Shown here: positions 30,822 to 38,673 of the stretch, in pieces
How positions within the stretch are numbered: position 1 is the stretch's first letter
How the letters are laid out: each line of letters starts with the position of its first letter
DNA from: Escherichia coli
GTDB taxonomy: Bacteria; Pseudomonadota; Gammaproteobacteria; Enterobacterales; Enterobacteriaceae
Assembly (NCBI RefSeq): GCF_041886205.1
Contig: NZ_CP169030.1
DNA: 64,000 nucleotides
Reading direction: 5' to 3' (one strand)
Notes under the pieces: generated by a model
Seen by the model: only the letters and a program-made list of their open reading frames with translations
The model's database searches: none
What the model was told of the DNA's origin: nothing
Made by a program: the position numbers and the translations under genes

Positions 30822-33004
30822 ATGAAGATACTGAGGCAGCTGTGGAACCAGAAAGGGCTTGATGCGGCAGTTGAAGATGTACCTGAGGATCGATACGGTT
30901 TCGGTAATATCGCAGAAAATATATCCCGTTCCATCCTTACTCTTCCTCTGGAGGCTTCAAATGTTGTCGGAATAGAAGGTGCATGGGGATCGGGTAAAAC
31001 AAGCCTCCTTAATCTGATCCTGAGAAACCTTGCCCTGAAAAAAGATGCTCACACGCATGTGCTGCATATTTCTCCCTGGCTGAGTGGTGGCAGTCCGGTT
31101 GAAGCGCTCTTTCTTCCGGTTGCCACGGTTATCCAGCAGGAAATGGAAATACGCTATCCCCCGAAGGGCTTCAAAAAGCTCTGGCGTAAATATCTGTTGT
31201 CACCGGAAGCTCAAAAAGTGATTGAGTATGCTCAGGATACTTCATCGCGCGTCCTTCCACTGGTTCAATATATCGGACAGTTTTCCAGCATTATTAACTG
31301 GATAGCAGGCGGAATAAAGGTATTTTCAGACAGCCGTCTGGCTGTTGATCAGAAAACCACGACAAAGCTTCGGGCTGAAATTGCAGGACAACTGGTGAGT
31401 CTGGATCTGAAGTTCATTGTTGTCATGGATGATCTGGACCGACTGGAGCCATCCCAGGTGGCGGAAGTGTTCAGGCTTGTGCGTGCAGTAGCCGATCTGC
31501 CCCGCTTTACCCATATTCTCTGTTATGACAGGCAGATTATCACTCATGCCGTTGAACATGCGCTGAATATCGAAGATGGCAGCCGTTATCTCCAGAAAAT
31601 CATTCAGCTTAGTTTTAAATTACCCCGACCTGAAGCCTTTGATTTACGTAATGAATTTCGCCAGCGGGCTGAGGCTCTATATCAGCAAATTAATAATCAA
31701 CCGCCAGACTCTGGAATGGTAAGGGATCTCATCGCGGTGACTGATACCTATGGTGCCGCACTTTCGACGCCACGGGAAATCCATCAGGCCATTAATTCCC
31801 TGATTTGTGCCTGCTTCAGCTTATACGGGTGACAAACCCGGCTCTGTATGACTGGACAGAGCATTACCTGACAGAACGGTCCGTGATTGAAACCGGTCAG
31901 GGTATGCTTTCTGACGGAGAGAAAGCAGACTTCCGGGAGGGGCTTATCAGATGTATGAAGACGTTCAGGGCATCAAATGCAGACTCGTTTCTGACACTTG
32001 CAGACTGGATCCCAGGTATCAGTGGACATAATGATGAATATCTGAATCTTTTTGAGCCCGTCAGTGAGGATTTTCGTCATATCCAGACGACCGGTAAACG
32101 ACTCAGCAGCCTGACGCACTGGCGATATTATTTTGCCTTCTCCTCACCACAGAATGTTCTGCCACCTGAATTCTTCAGACAGCTTTTTGAACAGGCTGGC
32201 GTATCGGAAAAACAGCAGCAGCTTTCTGAATTGCTGCTCTCAAAAATCAACAGTGTGGGCAGTCTGTCCGGAACCTGGTTTGAACATATACTGAGCAGAC
32301 TGACTCCAGGCCTGATAAGAGAACGTAATTTCGAAGAGTGCGCAGGACTGGTTCATTTTTTCTTCGATCACACCGATGAGGTGAGCACTCGCTTCAGTAT
32401 CCGTAACCCATGGTTTTCCCTGCGTGAAATGGCCATTAATGAGGTTGTACGGCATCTGCTGAAGCATATGCAGGATATTGATGAGACCAGAACGATCACG
32501 CTTATGGAAAAACTGATCGTTACGGGTGCTTCGCCGTTCTGGATAGCCGATTTTATGCGGGATCTTATCTGGGAACATGGACTTGCTCAGAATGCAGTAC
32601 CTTCGCCTTCAGACGCTCTTTTCAGTCGCGATATTACGGAACGGTTGCGTGACAGGTTTGCGGAACGTATGAATCAACCAGAACTTCAGCAACAGCTTCT
32701 CCTGCGCAAGTCTCTTCTCGGGTATCTCTACGCCTGGAGAGACATGAGTTCAGGTGAAACCGTGAAGCAATGGGTCAGAGAAGTTACTACCACTGATGAA
32801 GGCCTTGTTAACCTGTTGATACGATTACAGACCAGTGTCTTCAGCTCCCACCGAGGGGCATATCGCCGGATTGCGCGTGACCAGGTCAGTCCGTTCTTTG
32901 ATGACTGGCCAGCAGTCGAAGAGAAGTTGAAGGTTATGCTGTCCGGCAACGAGCTGACTCCGGAGCAGGAAGCGCTCAAAACAGCGCTGGAAAATGACGA
33001 CTGA
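30822..33004 (+). pseudogene. KAP-family P-loop NTPase, split by a frameshift near 31805-31832 (about 730 aa if repaired)
   Basis: Walker A GAWGSGKTS, Walker B FIVVMDDLDR and PREIHQAINSL motif in ORF 30822-31832; continuation in the next frame at 31805-33004; IS21 ends 10 bp upstream of the ATG. Confidence 0.6.
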
Positions 33005-33053: not shown

Positions 33054-33953
33054 TCAGGCGCTTAATGCTTTATCCTTGTCAAAAGGAACACCGGCATACG
33101 CAAGCTCACTCAGCAGTTTGCGTTTCCATCCACCATGCTCATCAAGCTCGGTATAGAGAACCCCGGCAAGATCTGAAGGGATTTCGATATCTCCCTTCCT
33201 GAGTACAAGTACTTTCCCGCGTCCAAGCTTCCCGGCGAAATATCCGAGCTCATACAGGACATTCTGGCGTGCGCGGAGACGTGTGCTTTCAGATGCCAGA
33301 GCACTGCCGCTATCGTCGGGCGTCATCAGCACGATGGCAAAACTGACATCCCCTGACTCTGCTTCAAATTTCTCGATAATCGTCCTGGAGCCGTCAGGAC
33401 GTTCTGAAAGAATGATTTCCTCAAGACCTATCCGGGATATAAAACGGGCAACAGACTGAAGGGCATCATTATCATGGCCATGAACAATAAAAATTTTTCG
33501 GGAAACCGGCCGAAACACTGCAGGCTCAGGATCGTGTTGGTTTTCCACATACAACTGGTAATCGCGCACGAACGGGGCAACTAATGACGACGTGAATTTT
33601 CGAATGGATTCAATAATGTTTCGATCATAGAAAAATGTATGACAGAAATTAAAGGAAAAATTGTTATCGTCTGCCATTTTCTCGATCAGCAGCAACTTCA
33701 GGCCCAAAATATCAGCGGGCTCATCAGGCCACTGTAGAACAGCGGAACCAGCCATGCTGGATTCAGTATCTTCACTCCTGGCCAGAAAGGTATCAAGTTC
33801 AACATTGCGGGTCAGATGTGCATTAACTGACTGCAGATTCTCTGAGTTCAAGAGCCGGGCCAATTGCTTAAGAGGTTGCTGATAGTTCTGAACGTCAGCG
33901 CGCTGAAGGTCGAATACGCAATTTTTAAGTGACTGAAAGATATCAATTGCCAT
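33054..33953 (-). CDS. protein with C-terminal TIR-like (COG4271-type) domain and unknown N-terminal domain
   Basis: 299 aa; C-terminal KIFIVHGHD ... AIVLMTPDD ... RARQNVLYELGYFAGKLGRGKVLVL matches recalled hallmarks of the TIR-like domain found in CBASS/Pycsar-type effectors. Confidence 0.5.
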   Translation of the reverse strand: MAIDIFQSLKNCVFDLQRADVQNYQQPLKQLARLLNSENLQSVNAHLTRNVELDTFLARSEDTESSMAGSAVLQWPDEPADILGLKLLLIEKMADDNNFSFNFCHTFFYDRNIIESIRKFTSSLVAPFVRDYQLYVENQHDPEPAVFRPVSRKIFIVHGHDNDALQSVARFISRIGLEEIILSERPDGSRTIIEKFEAESGDVSFAIVLMTPDDSGSALASESTRLRARQNVLYELGYFAGKLGRGKVLVLRKGDIEIPSDLAGVLYTELDEHGGWKRKLLSELAYAGVPFDKDKALSA

Positions 33954-34233
33954 CCTGCCCGCTCTCCTGTCTTTGTTGTTCTGCTCTGTCCAGAATCTGT
34001 TGGCGCAGATTTTCTTTCATGTGTTCGATTAATGGGCTGACCATCGGATTAGTGGCATAACCAGAAGCGCGTTCGTACACCATGGAATAGGCTTCCTGAA
34101 TCGCGTTCTCAATGCTGACAGGATCGTTAGCATCGAAGTGGACATCATAACTTCCGTTTAATGCCTCTGTTGCTCTCTCAACCTCTTTTAGCTGTTTCTG
34201 CATTTTGTCTAAACCTGTGATTTTGACGCTCAT
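33943..34233 (-). CDS. small hypothetical protein (96 aa), translationally coupled to the TIR-like gene
   Basis: Stop overlaps downstream start by 11 nt; helical, charged; no recognisable domain. Confidence 0.4.
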   Translation of the reverse strand: MSVKITGLDKMQKQLKEVERATEALNGSYDVHFDANDPVSIENAIQEAYSMVYERASGYATNPMVSPLIEHMKENLRQQILDRAEQQRQESGQDGN

Positions 34234-34759: not shown

Positions 34760-35172
34760 ACAAGACTTATATGCTTGATACCTGTATCTGCTCGTTCATC
34801 ATGCGTGAACAGCCAGAAGCCGTCCTGAAGCGTCTGGAGCAGGCGGTGCTACGCGGCCACCGTATAGTGGTCTCGGCCATCACCTACTCTGAAATGCGCT
34901 TCGGGGCTACCGGCCCAAAGGCCTCACCACGTCACGTCCAACTGGTCGATGAATTCTGCGCCCGCCTCGATGCCATCCTGCCCTGGGATCGCGCCGCAGT
35001 AGACGCCACCACGAAGATTAAAGTGGCACTGCGGCTGGCCGGGACGCCGATCGGCCCGAACGACACGGCGATTGCCGGGCACGCCATCGCCGCCGGGGCG
35101 ATACTGGTAACGAATAATACAAGAGAATTTGAGCGAGTGCCTGACCTGGTGCTGGAAGACTGGGTGAAGTAA
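34756..35172 (+). CDS. vapC: VapC PIN-domain toxin
   Basis: 138 aa; N-terminal MLDTCI with acidic Asp typical of PIN domains. Confidence 0.8.
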   Translation: MNKTYMLDTCICSFIMREQPEAVLKRLEQAVLRGHRIVVSAITYSEMRFGATGPKASPRHVQLVDEFCARLDAILPWDRAAVDATTKIKVALRLAGTPIGPNDTAIAGHAIAAGAILVTNNTREFERVPDLVLEDWVK

Positions 35173-35333: not shown

Positions 35334-37472
35334 TCAAGCGATACGGGCAACCGAGCTCTGGTTTGCTGCCGGTGGCAGGGCGATGAGCTTGTCACATTCC
35401 ATAATCACGTACTCCGGGATGAGATCGAATCTGGACGGATCTAGTTGACAGATGAACTCATTTTCAATGTGGTACGTTTCGTTAACGAATTTTCGTATTA
35501 CCGGATGGTCCTGATCCAGTTCCAGTAAACGGAATACCTGCAGTTTTTCATAGCCGTTACGACAGCGACGGTACAGGTTTTTTATTTCATCTGGGCTGCT
35601 GACGAGAGCCTGAAGTCGCGGGTAATCAAAACTGTCCACATACTCCCGGATATCCCGCAAGGCCTGCTGAATTTTCTCAGGAGCCATTTTGGGATAGCCC
35701 GAGCCCGCAGCGGCAGGCTCGCGATAATCCAGCGGGACGACGCGTCGATGGAATAGATTGGATAGAAGCTGATAAGCATCACCACGTTCGTCAACGATTT
35801 CAAAGTAGCGACGAAGATAGATGAGCTTAATGATCTCCTCACAGTCTGCTGACGCGGTGATGGATTTGCAGATCTGCATGAATGTCATGATATCGCCGTC
35901 GTTAACAGGTAATTCTTCTATGACTCCAGCAGACAGGCGCAGGCAGGAGGCGGTCACCTGATTACTGAACAACCTTCTGACTGACTTCAGCGTGTCAATC
36001 ACAGGCTCCACGTCATGCGTCAGCATAAGTACAGTCCGGTTCTTCAGGCATTCACCACTTGCACGTCTGAACAGCATTTCAAGAATGGCAAACTTCTTGT
36101 TTTTATCAAAAGAAGATATGGGATCATCAAGGATAATCAGTCCCGGGTTTTTTGACAGGCATTCATACATGAATAACACAATCGCAAAGGCGTTCCGTTC
36201 TCCATAGCTGAGATGCTGGCTACCGCCGCTGACGTACCCGTCAAAATCTATGTGTCGTAGCCTGAGTTTTCTCTGCTCTCCCTCGCCGGCTATATCCACC
36301 CTGTATTTATAGCCTGCATAAGTGAGGAAATTATTGATGTTTGTTTTGTGCTGTGCGATCAGCCGGATCATGCTGTCCCGGTGCCGGTTAATTTTTCCCT
36401 GCAGCGGTCCGGCAAGGTTTATCAGGTCCATAAGGGCCGCGTTCAGTCTGTCGGTGATCCCCTGCATGAGTTCGGATTGCAGATCAGGGAAGAACTGCAG
36501 GTCAATCAACCTGGCAGTGAGCACCTCCCGAACGTTCTGCTGTTCCTGCAGGCTGAAAACATTCAGGCCTCTCAGCGCAGTGAGTTTCTCTGTCAGCGTA
36601 TCGGTCTGGCGTTTCAACGCCACTAGGTACTCGATATGTTCGGCTTCCGGACCGTTCTGAAGCATAGTAATGGCCAGAAGGCGTTCTCTGGCGCTCTCCG
36701 TCAGGTAATTACCGAGGTTTTCCACCAGTCTGATGATAGCGGTCAGGTTTTTAATGGTGGATTTATCGTATTCCTCTCTGACTTGGCGAATTTGTGCTTC
36801 CTTTCCCGTGATATCACCGGTACAGAACGGACAGCAGCCATCCGAAAGGGGCGAAAACTCGAGTCCCTTTGTCTGCCAGTCAATCCATTCCACGCGGCGT
36901 TCACTGCGGATGTAGGGTTGATAGTTCTCAAGACCAGCCGGAATGTGGTGTATTTTATTTCCGCCTGACAGACCTCTCATGCCGGTTGAAGAACGTGAAA
37001 TCCCGGAACTGGTTGATCTGAAAGCATTACTGAGTTCCTGTAGATGGTCTATCAGAGAGTTCAGCTCAGTGTGATCCGTGAAAACAGCCCGGATCTTTTG
37101 CGTCATTTCTTCTATTTCACGCTCTCTTTCCGCATGGGCTTGATTGCGGATAAGAATATTAAAGCTATCACTGATGAGCTCGTCCGGTTGGAACGTAAAC
37201 TGACTGACGTACTCCTCGTTGAAGCACATCACGTCCCCAATCCCGTCAGCACCGATGACAATGGGCCCGGTGCTATCGGGGTTTTCTCCGCGCAGCCGGA
37301 AGGGTATCAGTGCCTGTAGTCCCTGAATGTCGTCCCGCGCCGCACAGCTTATGGCCCGTGACAGCGTACTTTTTCCAGTACCATTTGGCGCAAACTTAAT
37401 GTTCAGTTTATCGGCAGTGAGGGTGATATGTGCTCGTACGATGTTATTGCAGTGGCGTATTTCAATGTCCAT
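35334..37472 (-). CDS. RloC/Rad50-like ABC ATPase with CxxC motif in the inter-lobe insert and an uncharacterised C-terminal domain
   Basis: 712 aa; Walker A APNGTGKST near N-terminus; CCPFCTG about residue 213; signature-like LSYGERN, Walker B LIILDDPISSFD and H-loop LTHD about residues 415-480; roughly 230 aa beyond the ATPase. Confidence 0.55.
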   Translation of the reverse strand: MDIEIRHCNNIVRAHITLTADKLNIKFAPNGTGKSTLSRAISCAARDDIQGLQALIPFRLRGENPDSTGPIVIGADGIGDVMCFNEEYVSQFTFQPDELISDSFNILIRNQAHAEREREIEEMTQKIRAVFTDHTELNSLIDHLQELSNAFRSTSSGISRSSTGMRGLSGGNKIHHIPAGLENYQPYIRSERRVEWIDWQTKGLEFSPLSDGCCPFCTGDITGKEAQIRQVREEYDKSTIKNLTAIIRLVENLGNYLTESARERLLAITMLQNGPEAEHIEYLVALKRQTDTLTEKLTALRGLNVFSLQEQQNVREVLTARLIDLQFFPDLQSELMQGITDRLNAALMDLINLAGPLQGKINRHRDSMIRLIAQHKTNINNFLTYAGYKYRVDIAGEGEQRKLRLRHIDFDGYVSGGSQHLSYGERNAFAIVLFMYECLSKNPGLIILDDPISSFDKNKKFAILEMLFRRASGECLKNRTVLMLTHDVEPVIDTLKSVRRLFSNQVTASCLRLSAGVIEELPVNDGDIMTFMQICKSITASADCEEIIKLIYLRRYFEIVDERGDAYQLLSNLFHRRVVPLDYREPAAAGSGYPKMAPEKIQQALRDIREYVDSFDYPRLQALVSSPDEIKNLYRRCRNGYEKLQVFRLLELDQDHPVIRKFVNETYHIENEFICQLDPSRFDLIPEYVIMECDKLIALPPAANQSSVARIA

Positions 37473-37825
37473 TTATCTGTCCTTTGCCAGTTATTCCGGG
37501 GGGATTCATATCCTTCCGCAAAATGTGCCCGCATGCTGTGATGCAGATACATAATACATTTCGTTTATACCATTGCTTACACCTCTCCGAGGTGTTCATA
37601 TCAGAAACAAAGATTAGGTCGATCCGACTTAGCCGGAAACCGGATCTGCGCGGCAGAAAAGACGCAAATGATATGATAATTAAGAAATATACATAAAATC
37701 ATATCAGATATGATTTTAATCATTAAAAATGAAACAATATCTGATATTATCAGAAATCAAAAGCACACAAATCATACATGATATGATTTTTACCTGTCAG
37801 AACATTATCAGATGGAGCGTGCAGG

Positions 37826-38083
37826 ATGGATCAGGAAATGACGTTTTCACTCAGCTATGAACAACTGACCCGGTTTGCGGAACGACGCATCCGGGAATGC
37901 AATCTGGACAGCCAGGGCGCGATTTATCTCTGCGAGTCAGCCAAAGCCGGAGCCGTGCTGATCTTCTGGCATGAACTGGCCATAAATGGCTATGCCTCAA
38001 TGAATGCCATAAAGAGACAGGAGCTCATTGACGCCGACTTTCAGCGCCTCAGAAAGCTCATCTGGCCGGAGGATGACAGGTAA
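37826..38083 (+). CDS. hypothetical protein (85 aa)
   Basis: ORF; stop overlaps next start. Confidence 0.35.
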   Translation: MDQEMTFSLSYEQLTRFAERRIRECNLDSQGAIYLCESAKAGAVLIFWHELAINGYASMNAIKRQELIDADFQRLRKLIWPEDDR

Positions 38084-38673
38084 TGACCCAGAGCCGCCGA
38101 CCGTCGCCACTGCAGCGGAGAGTGCTGATTGTGCTGGCTGCCCTTGATGAAAAACGGCCAGGACCCGTGCTGACGCGGGACATAGAACGGGTGCTGGAGC
38201 GAAGCGGGGAAGCCCCGGTCTACGGGCCAAACCTGCGCGCCTCCTGCCGTCGTCTGGAGGATGCCGGCTGGCTGCGTACCCTGCGCGCTCCGAACCTGCA
38301 GCTGGCAGTGGAGCTGACGGACGCCGGCCGGGCCGTGGCACAGCCTCTGCTGCTGGCAGAACAGGACCGCCTCCGGGCAGAACAGCGTGCGGCAGAAGTC
38401 GTCGTACTGCCGCTGGTCCCGGCAGCAGGTCTGCACGCAGACGGCACTTCTGCCACTGATCTGGCGGTGGAGCTGAACGGCATAACGTATCAGGCCTGCC
38501 GTGGGGATTTTGTGGTGCGTCTCGACGGCAGCACCTGTCTGCAGTTATGGAATAAAGAAGGCAGAGTGGTACGCCGGGAGGGCGATCCGCTGGAAGTGGC
38601 GCAGTGGCTGCAGGCCTGTCATGATGCCGGAATAGAAGTTCGTGTACAGGTTAATGAAAGCGTCACTCCGTAA
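38083..38673 (+). CDS. hypothetical protein with N-terminal winged-helix-like segment (196 aa)
   Basis: ORF in GC-rich plasmid backbone; domain guess only. Confidence 0.35.
   Translation: MTQSRRPSPLQRRVLIVLAALDEKRPGPVLTRDIERVLERSGEAPVYGPNLRASCRRLEDAGWLRTLRAPNLQLAVELTDAGRAVAQPLLLAEQDRLRAEQRAAEVVVLPLVPAAGLHADGTSATDLAVELNGITYQACRGDFVVRLDGSTCLQLWNKEGRVVRREGDPLEVAQWLQACHDAGIEVRVQVNESVTP

Follow-up and report, generated by a model that had tools for sequence, protein, structure and literature searches.

The gene and its product

The 64,000-nucleotide stretch of Escherichia coli DNA analysed here (contig NZ_CP169030.1 of assembly GCF_041886205.1; hereafter the window) carries a gene for a 712-residue ATPase that probably has a role in phage defence. 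Our preferred, still tentative, reading is that it is a self-contained abortive-infection protein in the style of RloC and PrrC. The open reading frame (ORF) listing and the translation of the window place it on the minus strand at 35334..37472, with an ATG start, 712 codons and a stop. A first-pass annotation, made by a model from the sequence alone, had given the same ORF without its strand, and the motifs that it quoted are all present at coordinates confirmed by translation (Table 1). The ORF is well beyond a chance one: its product matches protein cluster P0001, of 1587 member sequences, at 100% identity, and the database proteins that match it at E ≤ 0.001 number 3642. Its RefSeq name is 'AAA family ATPase' (WP_000350638.1).

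According to the PADLOC scan, hidden Markov model (HMM) PDLC04889 covers amino acids (aa) 1-698 of the product (profile positions 1-688 of 693; E = 8.5e-286), and by this match the protein is a direct member of PDC-S06, a single-gene phage defence candidate family. PDC-S06 is built of 13 HMMs and is computational in origin, so to that extent the family was already known and catalogued. The same scan gave a weak match to the LmuB HMM (E = 6e-14), and the PHROGs match is phrog_2801, to which no function is assigned there. The literature search returned no paper for WP_000350638; another E. coli protein assigned to PDC-S06 by PADLOC, WP_032269946.1, is named as a probable true positive in a language-model preprint of 2025.

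A housekeeping SMC or RecN protein, the competing identity named in the first-pass annotation, was not what the searches returned. The best NCBIfam matches scored 20-32 bits against cutoffs of 172-725, and scores so far under every cutoff exclude the SMC, RecN and RecF equivalogs. The context on plasmids and in defence islands and the short insert also disfavour a housekeeping SMC or Rad50-SbcC protein.

Table 1. Features of the ATPase gene and its upstream spacer (window coordinates; conservation as residues identical in 104 aligned homologues)
Feature	Position	Strand	Residues	Basis or conservation
Complete coding sequence	35334..37472	-	712 aa	PADLOC PDC-S06 (PDLC04889) / Pfam AAA_13-type ATPase; ORF, HMM, cluster P0001 identity
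N-terminal head lobe	37158..37472	-	aa 1-105	Pfam AAA_13 aa 21-137
Walker A APNGTGKST	37365-37391	-	aa 28-36	K34 104/104
Helical insert	36309..37157	-	aa 106-388	AlphaFold2 secondary structure; weak matches of the LmuB HMM and of further PDC-S06 HMMs
CPFC, candidate zinc-hook cysteine pair	36822..36833	-	aa 214-217	Within CCPFCTG, aa 213-219
C-terminal head lobe	36012..36308	-	aa 389-487	Pfam AAA_13 aa 418-489
Signature-like LSYGERN	36192-36212	-	aa 421-427	
Walker B/D-loop LIILDDPISSFD	36105-36140	-	aa 445-456	
H-loop LTHD	36012-36023	-	aa 484-487	
Family-specific C-terminal domain, proposed effector	35337..36011	-	aa 488-712	
RRYFE, Arg-X3-Glu on helix 546-560	35799..35813	-	aa 554-558	R554 104/104, R555 96/104, E558 98/104
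KFVNETYHIEN	35460..35492	-	aa 661-671	K661 102/104, E665 97/104, H668 104/104, E670 97/104, N671 102/104
Intergenic spacer, 353 bp	37473..37825	.		Separates the ATPase gene from the divergent 85-aa/196-aa operon

ABC ATPase head and helical insert

The protein has the split ATP-binding cassette (ABC) head that the first-pass annotation had described. Pfam AAA_13 (PF13166), the profile against which it had proposed a search, matches both head lobes and is confined to them (E = 1.5e-4 for the N-terminal and 6e-9 for the C-terminal lobe). A full-length AlphaFold2 model built from 104 homologues has a mean predicted local distance difference test (pLDDT) score of 90.8 and a predicted template modelling (pTM) score of 0.79, and its head resembles those of SMC, Rad50, RecN, SbcC, JetC and PARIS AriA (PDB entry 8ux9), with Foldseek E values from 1e-7 to 1e-4. 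In the alignment of 104 homologues, with identities down to 28%, residues K34, S422, D449, D450, D456 and H486 are invariant; judged from these motifs, the ABC NTPase is intact.

Between the two lobes, the model shows an insert composed of arm helices (aa 111-150 and 334-386) around an apical region of ∼180 residues of shorter helices. By SMC-type topology the arm helices would be expected to pair in antiparallel fashion. The cysteine pair lies in this insert and is as well conserved as the Walker A lysine: C214 is found in 104/104, P215 in 103/104 and C217 in 103/104 homologues. The residues just before the cysteines are conserved too (W196 in 100/104, W199 in 101/104 and G203 in 94/104), giving the context W199-QTK-G203...C214-P-F-C217, i.e. 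W..G-x(∼10)-CxFC. The hook region is also where two further PDC-S06 HMMs align. The zinc-hook-like insert proposed in the first-pass annotation is thus borne out as regards its near-invariant CxxC motif, its RloC-like context and its helical character, but not as a long Rad50-like coiled coil: in the model it is shorter and more globular than that. Two further cysteines are well conserved, C8 (37449-37451; 99/104) on the first strand of the head and C693 (35394-35396; 97/104) on the last helix of the C-terminal domain.

The C-terminal domain

The residues that follow the H-loop form a domain of their own. Modelled alone from 62 sequences, it gave a pLDDT of 91.4 and a pTM of 0.87, with a small β-hairpin element followed by about nine helices. 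R554 and H668 are invariant, and R555, E558, S571, K643, R648, K661, E665, E670, N671 and Q676 are each conserved in at least 96/104 homologues (≥92%); several of the conserved residues fall on i/i+4 helix faces in the AlphaFold2 secondary structure. With invariant or near-invariant polar and charged residues gathered in short motifs, the domain appears to resemble a module of the catalytic type. From its sequence it is probably a toxic effector, and we consider it somewhat better than an even chance that the protein has a catalytic effector built into it. Conserved sets of Arg, Glu, His and Lys residues are typical of metal-independent RNases. RNase or tRNase activity is our leading guess because of such an Arg/Glu/His/Lys set and because the offset of R554-X3-E558 from Walker B is near that in the RloC of Geobacillus kaustophilus (GkaRloC); resting on this analogy, it is a guess to which we would give perhaps a third of our belief.

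The first-pass annotation had found nothing recognizable in the last 230 residues, and neither sequence nor structure searches changed this: every match was to the family itself or to its own PADLOC model. Pfam gave no match for the query and no consistent match across 62 members; NCBIfam gave nothing at E ≤ 10; PDB sequence profiles gave no match; a structural search of AFDB50 with the domain returned only members of its own family; and PADLOC returned only the family's own model, the PrrC models staying unmatched up to E = 10. With phmmer, 1.84 billion representative proteins were searched exhaustively, which gave 430 clusters with the domain. Among the matches listed no other architecture was seen; they are proteins of ∼700 residues with the domain at the C-terminus, or presumed fragments. 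PDLC04889 is the sole one of the 13 PDC-S06 HMMs to cover the domain, the others aligning to head and hook, so that the domain appears to be a swappable module within the AAA_13/PDC-S06 group.

Genomic context of the homologues

ORFs were called in 84 non-redundant homologous loci and the neighbouring genes were clustered (all counts that follow are raw). No partner gene is universal across the 84 loci, but DNA-modification systems recur. A seed search found type I, type III, BREX or Dcm/Vsr genes at 24/84 loci, and PADLOC scans added a divergent HsdR (locus L020) and bore out a type IIG enzyme at L052 and an HsdS at L025. Loci linked to restriction-modification (R-M), BREX or Dcm/Vsr genes thus number at least 25/84, and 13/23 among loci with at least 50% identity. 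The PADLOC scan also found a neighbouring Hachiman gene at L071 and a PDC-S73 gene at L014.

The linkage is often one of operon structure. In type I systems, for example, the order is hsdM-(Bro-N)-hsdS-DUF2188-ATPase-(AlbA_2/Fic/RhuM)-hsdR-YgjP; at a type III locus the ATPase gene and the res gene overlap by 4 nt; and at BREX loci the ATPase gene lies directly after brxL, with a gap of -32 to +10 nt. Going by gene order, such embedding with several unrelated DNA-modification systems would be hard to explain by chance.

Some neighbours are shared by subsets of loci. At six type I R-M-embedded loci (L008, L016, L017, L022, L027 and L060) a DUF2188 gene of 77-93 aa lies just ahead of the ATPase gene, at a distance of 3-16 nt, and other recurring small upstream ORFs are those of cluster 29 (∼104 aa; L071 and L079) and cluster 59 (∼95 aa; L026 and L033). 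The DUF2188 genes and the small ORFs are possibly clade-specific partners or antitoxin-like genes; ORFs of these types are absent from the E. coli plasmid locus. At L018, L020, L024 and L063 the end of the ATPase gene runs 4-28 nt into a downstream sbcD-sbcC-like pair, which gives an ATPase-SbcD-SbcC trio; in three of these four loci the trio is attached to a BREX pglX-pglZ-brxL operon. At L088 sbcDC lies within 3 kb of the ATPase gene.

Distribution and carriage

The same DNA (at least 80% coverage) was found in 541 of 5426 complete E. coli genomes (∼10%), at 1579 places, of which 1551 are plasmid-borne. The carrier plasmids in E. coli are of the IncF type, and there the gene is a single-gene unit. 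Of the 72,556 plasmids in PLSDB, 908 carry it; they are mostly conjugative and come from Escherichia, Salmonella, Klebsiella and Citrobacter, and the carrier plasmids of Enterobacteriaceae often have virulence or resistance genes as well. Homologues beyond Enterobacteriaceae are chromosomal. Full-length homologues with 38-63% identity occur in most bacterial phyla, including Proteobacteria, Bacteroidota, Chlorobi, Planctomycetes, Verrucomicrobia, Nitrospira, Spirochaetes, Firmicutes, Actinobacteria, Omnitrophota and lineages of the candidate phyla radiation (CPR). The conservation is unusually high: the E. coli protein is ∼55% identical to those of Chlorobium, cyanobacteria or Planctomycetes. 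A tblastn search of 50,697 phage records detected no carriage by phages (nothing at E ≤ 1e-10). IMG/VR yielded only four full-length relatives, each at a contig end, yet the PHROGs group phrog_2801 matches.

Comparison with RloC, PrrC and related systems

PrrC and RloC are fusions of an ABC ATPase with a C-terminal anticodon nuclease and are linked to R-M (PMC2610378, PMC3458546, PMC3710099). PrrC, of 396 aa, is a tRNA-Lys anticodon nuclease within the EcoprrI type Ic R-M locus; RloC, for example that of G. kaustophilus, is an anticodon nuclease that excises the wobble nucleotide, with a C-proximal catalytic triad Arg-X3-Glu-X36-52-His (PMC2610378). RloC is the closest known system to the protein described here, to judge from the sequence, with a C-terminal domain that would be either different or diverged beyond recognition. 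Both are single polypeptides of ∼700-800 residues with an ABC head split by a helical insert that bears a CxxC motif after a W..G motif, and the 'WVxxG...CxFC' hook region of RloC orthologues (PMC2610378 supplement) resembles the context of CPFC here. Both have a 'DD' Walker B, an SSxD D-loop and an H-loop; both match Pfam AAA_13; and in both the C-terminal domain starts just past the H-loop, with Arg-X3-Glu 105 residues after Walker B in our protein compared with an offset of 120 from Walker B to Arg in GkaRloC (D572 to R692). The genomic habits are also alike: genes of both kinds often stand alone and are occasionally linked to type I or type III R-M or to SbcCD-like genes. The 2008 RloC table lists SbcCD or metallophosphoesterase neighbours beside some RloC genes, and the R-M and BREX embedding of our homologues with RhuM or Fic matches the habits of the 'RloC-like ABC-HEPN' genes of the 2013 HEPN survey, which are found in R-M operons with RhuM or Fic/DOC and sometimes with Pgl/BREX (PMC3710099). 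The embedding is found at ∼30% of this family's loci, compared with the 8/72 reported for rloC (raw proportions).

The differences from RloC lie in the C-terminal domain and the insert. Positions 572-713 of the AAA_13 model, its C-terminal part, are unmatched and there is no detectable similarity in C-terminal sequence; R554-X3-E558 is present but the triad His is missing at X36-52; and the insert departs from the Rad50-type coiled coil as noted above. The E. coli plasmid protein is not among the 72 RloC orthologues listed in 2008. A search with an approximate fragment of G. kaustophilus RloC, rebuilt from a supplement read by optical character recognition, gave no match, and a lenient tblastn search against plasmids gave no usable RloC.

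With PrrC the protein shares an ABC-type NTPase N-domain joined to a C-terminal effector (as proposed here) and the Arg-X3-Glu motif, and several homologues are inserted, like prrC, between hsdS and hsdR of type I R-M operons. Unlike it, the protein has an insert with a CxxC motif, whereas PrrC has no coiled-coil/CxxC insert, and the window copy has no linked R-M, a linkage that is obligatory for PrrC. The CPxC form of the hook motif is that of Rad50/SbcC, and the SbcC beside some homologues has CPLC. Unlike Rad50/SbcC, Lamassu and PARIS, the protein lacks a long coiled coil and has its own C-terminal domain, and a dedicated nuclease partner (Mre11/SbcD, LmuA or AriB) is lacking at most loci; the patchy distribution on mobile elements likewise differs from that of housekeeping Rad50/SMC. 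Other tRNA-cleaving or HEPN candidates were set aside: the DARNA system has the HEPN catalytic residue H122 and no ABC head is described for it, and pEK499_p136 and APECO1_4465 of the 2013 HEPN survey belong to other families.

Proposed function and alternatives

A role in defence is likely, given the R-M and BREX embedding, the plasmid defence island in which the gene lies and PDC-S06 membership. Within that role, we favour, at a little less than even confidence and largely by analogy, a self-contained RloC/PrrC-style abortive-infection protein with a C-terminal effector of the metal-independent nuclease type. The protein would dimerize via its ATPase heads, and possibly via zinc shared at the CPxC motifs. 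Head and hook would together serve as sensor and switch, with the C-terminal domain held inactive, as in PrrC and RloC (PMC2610378, PMC3458546). As for PrrC and RloC, one of two cues may act as the trigger: the state or failure of a defence system based on DNA modification, or foreign DNA or DNA ends. NTP binding or hydrolysis would then free the C-terminal domain. The freed domain, with R554/R555/E558, K643/R648 and K661/E665/H668/E670/N671, would most likely act as a metal-independent nuclease, and cleavage of RNA or tRNA, the leading guess, would stop translation and abort the infection. On the IncF-type plasmid of the window the gene would work alone, with no linked R-M, as most rloC genes do.

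Several observations weigh against this proposal. With a median net charge of -8 and a pI of ∼5.2, the C-terminal domain is acidic overall, which is unusual for a nucleic-acid enzyme. No Rx4-6H motif was seen in it and no match to the HEPN fold turned up, and the spacing of the RloC/PrrC triad fails: H668 stands at X109 after E558 rather than X36-52, and H575, at X16, is His in only 80/104 homologues. The PADLOC PrrC HMM (PDLC02360) aligns to aa 421-473 only, which is the ABC signature region (E = 3.5e-4). In the literature searched, PDC-S06 appears in surveys and predictions only, with no experimental test or mechanism. A bolder form of the proposal, which we find rather doubtful, is that the C-terminal domain of ∼220 residues is an effector enzyme of new, non-HEPN fold that would define an RloC-like class of 'guard' proteins, backing R-M and BREX systems in many phyla and serving as an active stand-alone abortive-infection toxin on the IncF-type plasmids of some 10% of sequenced E. 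coli.

The head itself, being like those of SMC, Rad50, SbcC and Wadjet, would also suit a defence directed at DNA, in which head and hook sense foreign DNA or its ends and the C-terminal domain is a novel DNase or recruits a nuclease such as SbcCD. The sbcD-sbcC pairs that overlap or lie close to the ATPase gene at the five loci described above would fit, as would the SbcCD and metallophosphoesterase genes that flank some RloC orthologues and the activation of GkaRloC by linear DNA. That linkage is limited to a few closely related cassettes, though, and is missing at most loci and on this plasmid; no PD-(D/E)xK, HNH, GIY-YIG or Toprim motif was recognized in the C-terminal domain, which has no fold match and is acidic. 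We therefore regard a DNA-directed mechanism as unlikely. The acidic surface would suit the binding of DNA-binding proteins, and a non-catalytic C-terminal domain could be a sensor or adaptor that docks onto parts of R-M or BREX systems or onto a phage protein, the whole protein then regulating or guarding such systems or sequestering a phage factor. PrrC binds EcoprrI physically (PMC2610378), several DNA-modification systems unrelated to one another have the gene tightly embedded in them and no catalytic fold was recognized. Yet the gene stands alone at most loci and on ∼900 plasmids, a single fixed surface fits poorly with partners that range from type I, IIG and III R-M and BREX to none, and an invariant Arg and His with near-invariant Glu, Lys and Asn in short motifs look like an active site; an adaptor seems to us less likely again than a DNA-directed mechanism.

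Some AAA_13 members are described by Pfam as conjugative transfer proteins. In Enterobacteriaceae the gene is nearly always plasmid-borne, mostly on conjugative plasmids, and here it adjoins a vapBC addiction module, so that an ATPase for plasmid partition, conjugation or maintenance might be considered. It is highly improbable, given homologues that elsewhere are chromosomal, in many phyla and in R-M/BREX operons and defence islands, the lack of a conserved tra, par or rep partner and the presence of the family in the PADLOC candidate list.

If the preferred abortive-infection reading is right, the PrrC/RloC type of suicidal second line behind R-M would extend to BREX, type IIG and type III systems, and an effector domain without known structural relative would be added. 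As an active defence toxin the protein would be a widespread plasmid-borne factor of phage resistance, with a bearing on phage therapy against extraintestinal pathogenic E. coli and Salmonella.

Neighbouring genes and the upstream spacer

In the window the ATPase gene is convergent with vapBC (vapC ends at 35172) and divergent from a pair of genes for 85-aa and 196-aa products that starts at 37826, which makes it a single-gene transcription unit. The near-identical plasmid NZ_CP083264 served as the reference for the local context; neither there nor in the window is the gene flanked by R-M genes. The first-pass annotation had left it between a stand-alone ATPase and part of a larger system, and the former is what we find: the gene has its own transcription unit here and no neighbour is conserved across homologues.

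The annotation had also placed the gene in an island with a TIR-like pair and a KAP NTPase. Both a TIR protein and a KAP-type NTPase are present, with two amendments. The pair consists of one TIR protein (33054-33953, minus strand, 299 aa), which matches PADLOC PDC-S35 (E = 2e-65), and a 96-aa ORF that overlaps the start of the TIR gene (33054-34233 region, minus strand) and has no match. The KAP-type NTPase (30822-33004, plus strand) is a homologue of PifA, the T7-exclusion protein of the F plasmid, matched by PADLOC PifA in two halves (E = 2e-138 and 7e-136). Compared with the intact 741-aa gene of NZ_CP083264, it has a frameshifting 43-bp deletion near 31806, flanked by a 15-nt repeat, that divides it into two ORFs, and the sequence suggests that the window's copy is probably a pseudogene. 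With the PDC-S35 TIR protein, the PifA homologue and VapBC around the gene, the region is a plasmid defence island. Neither the TIR gene, the 96-aa ORF, pifA nor vapBC recurs beside homologues in the clustered loci; a TIR_2 protein next to the Serratia homologues (L004/L005), considered as a shared partner, has no detectable relation to the TIR protein of the window.

The spacer upstream of the ATPase gene contains several ATCATATCAGATATGAT-like palindromes within 37590-37815, among them those at 37694-37718 (perfect 12-nt arms), 37737-37757 and 37769-37790. These look like putative operator sites, and the spacer likely holds one or more promoters, as predicted from its sequence; a promoter-like site lies at 37800-37771 on the minus strand, although such sites are no commoner than in shuffled sequence. 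The 196-aa product of 38083-38673 is, by eye, possibly a winged-helix DNA-binding protein and could be a regulator.

On NZ_CP083264 (L001), ∼5 kb past the ATPase gene, positions 19957-21944 encode an 'AAA family ATPase' and a 'retron system putative HNH endonuclease', a pair that by its annotation reads as Septu/PtuAB-like, and the plasmid also has a further AAA ATPase of 518 aa. This region of the IncF backbone is a composite defence island, the content of which differs between NZ_CP083264 and the window.

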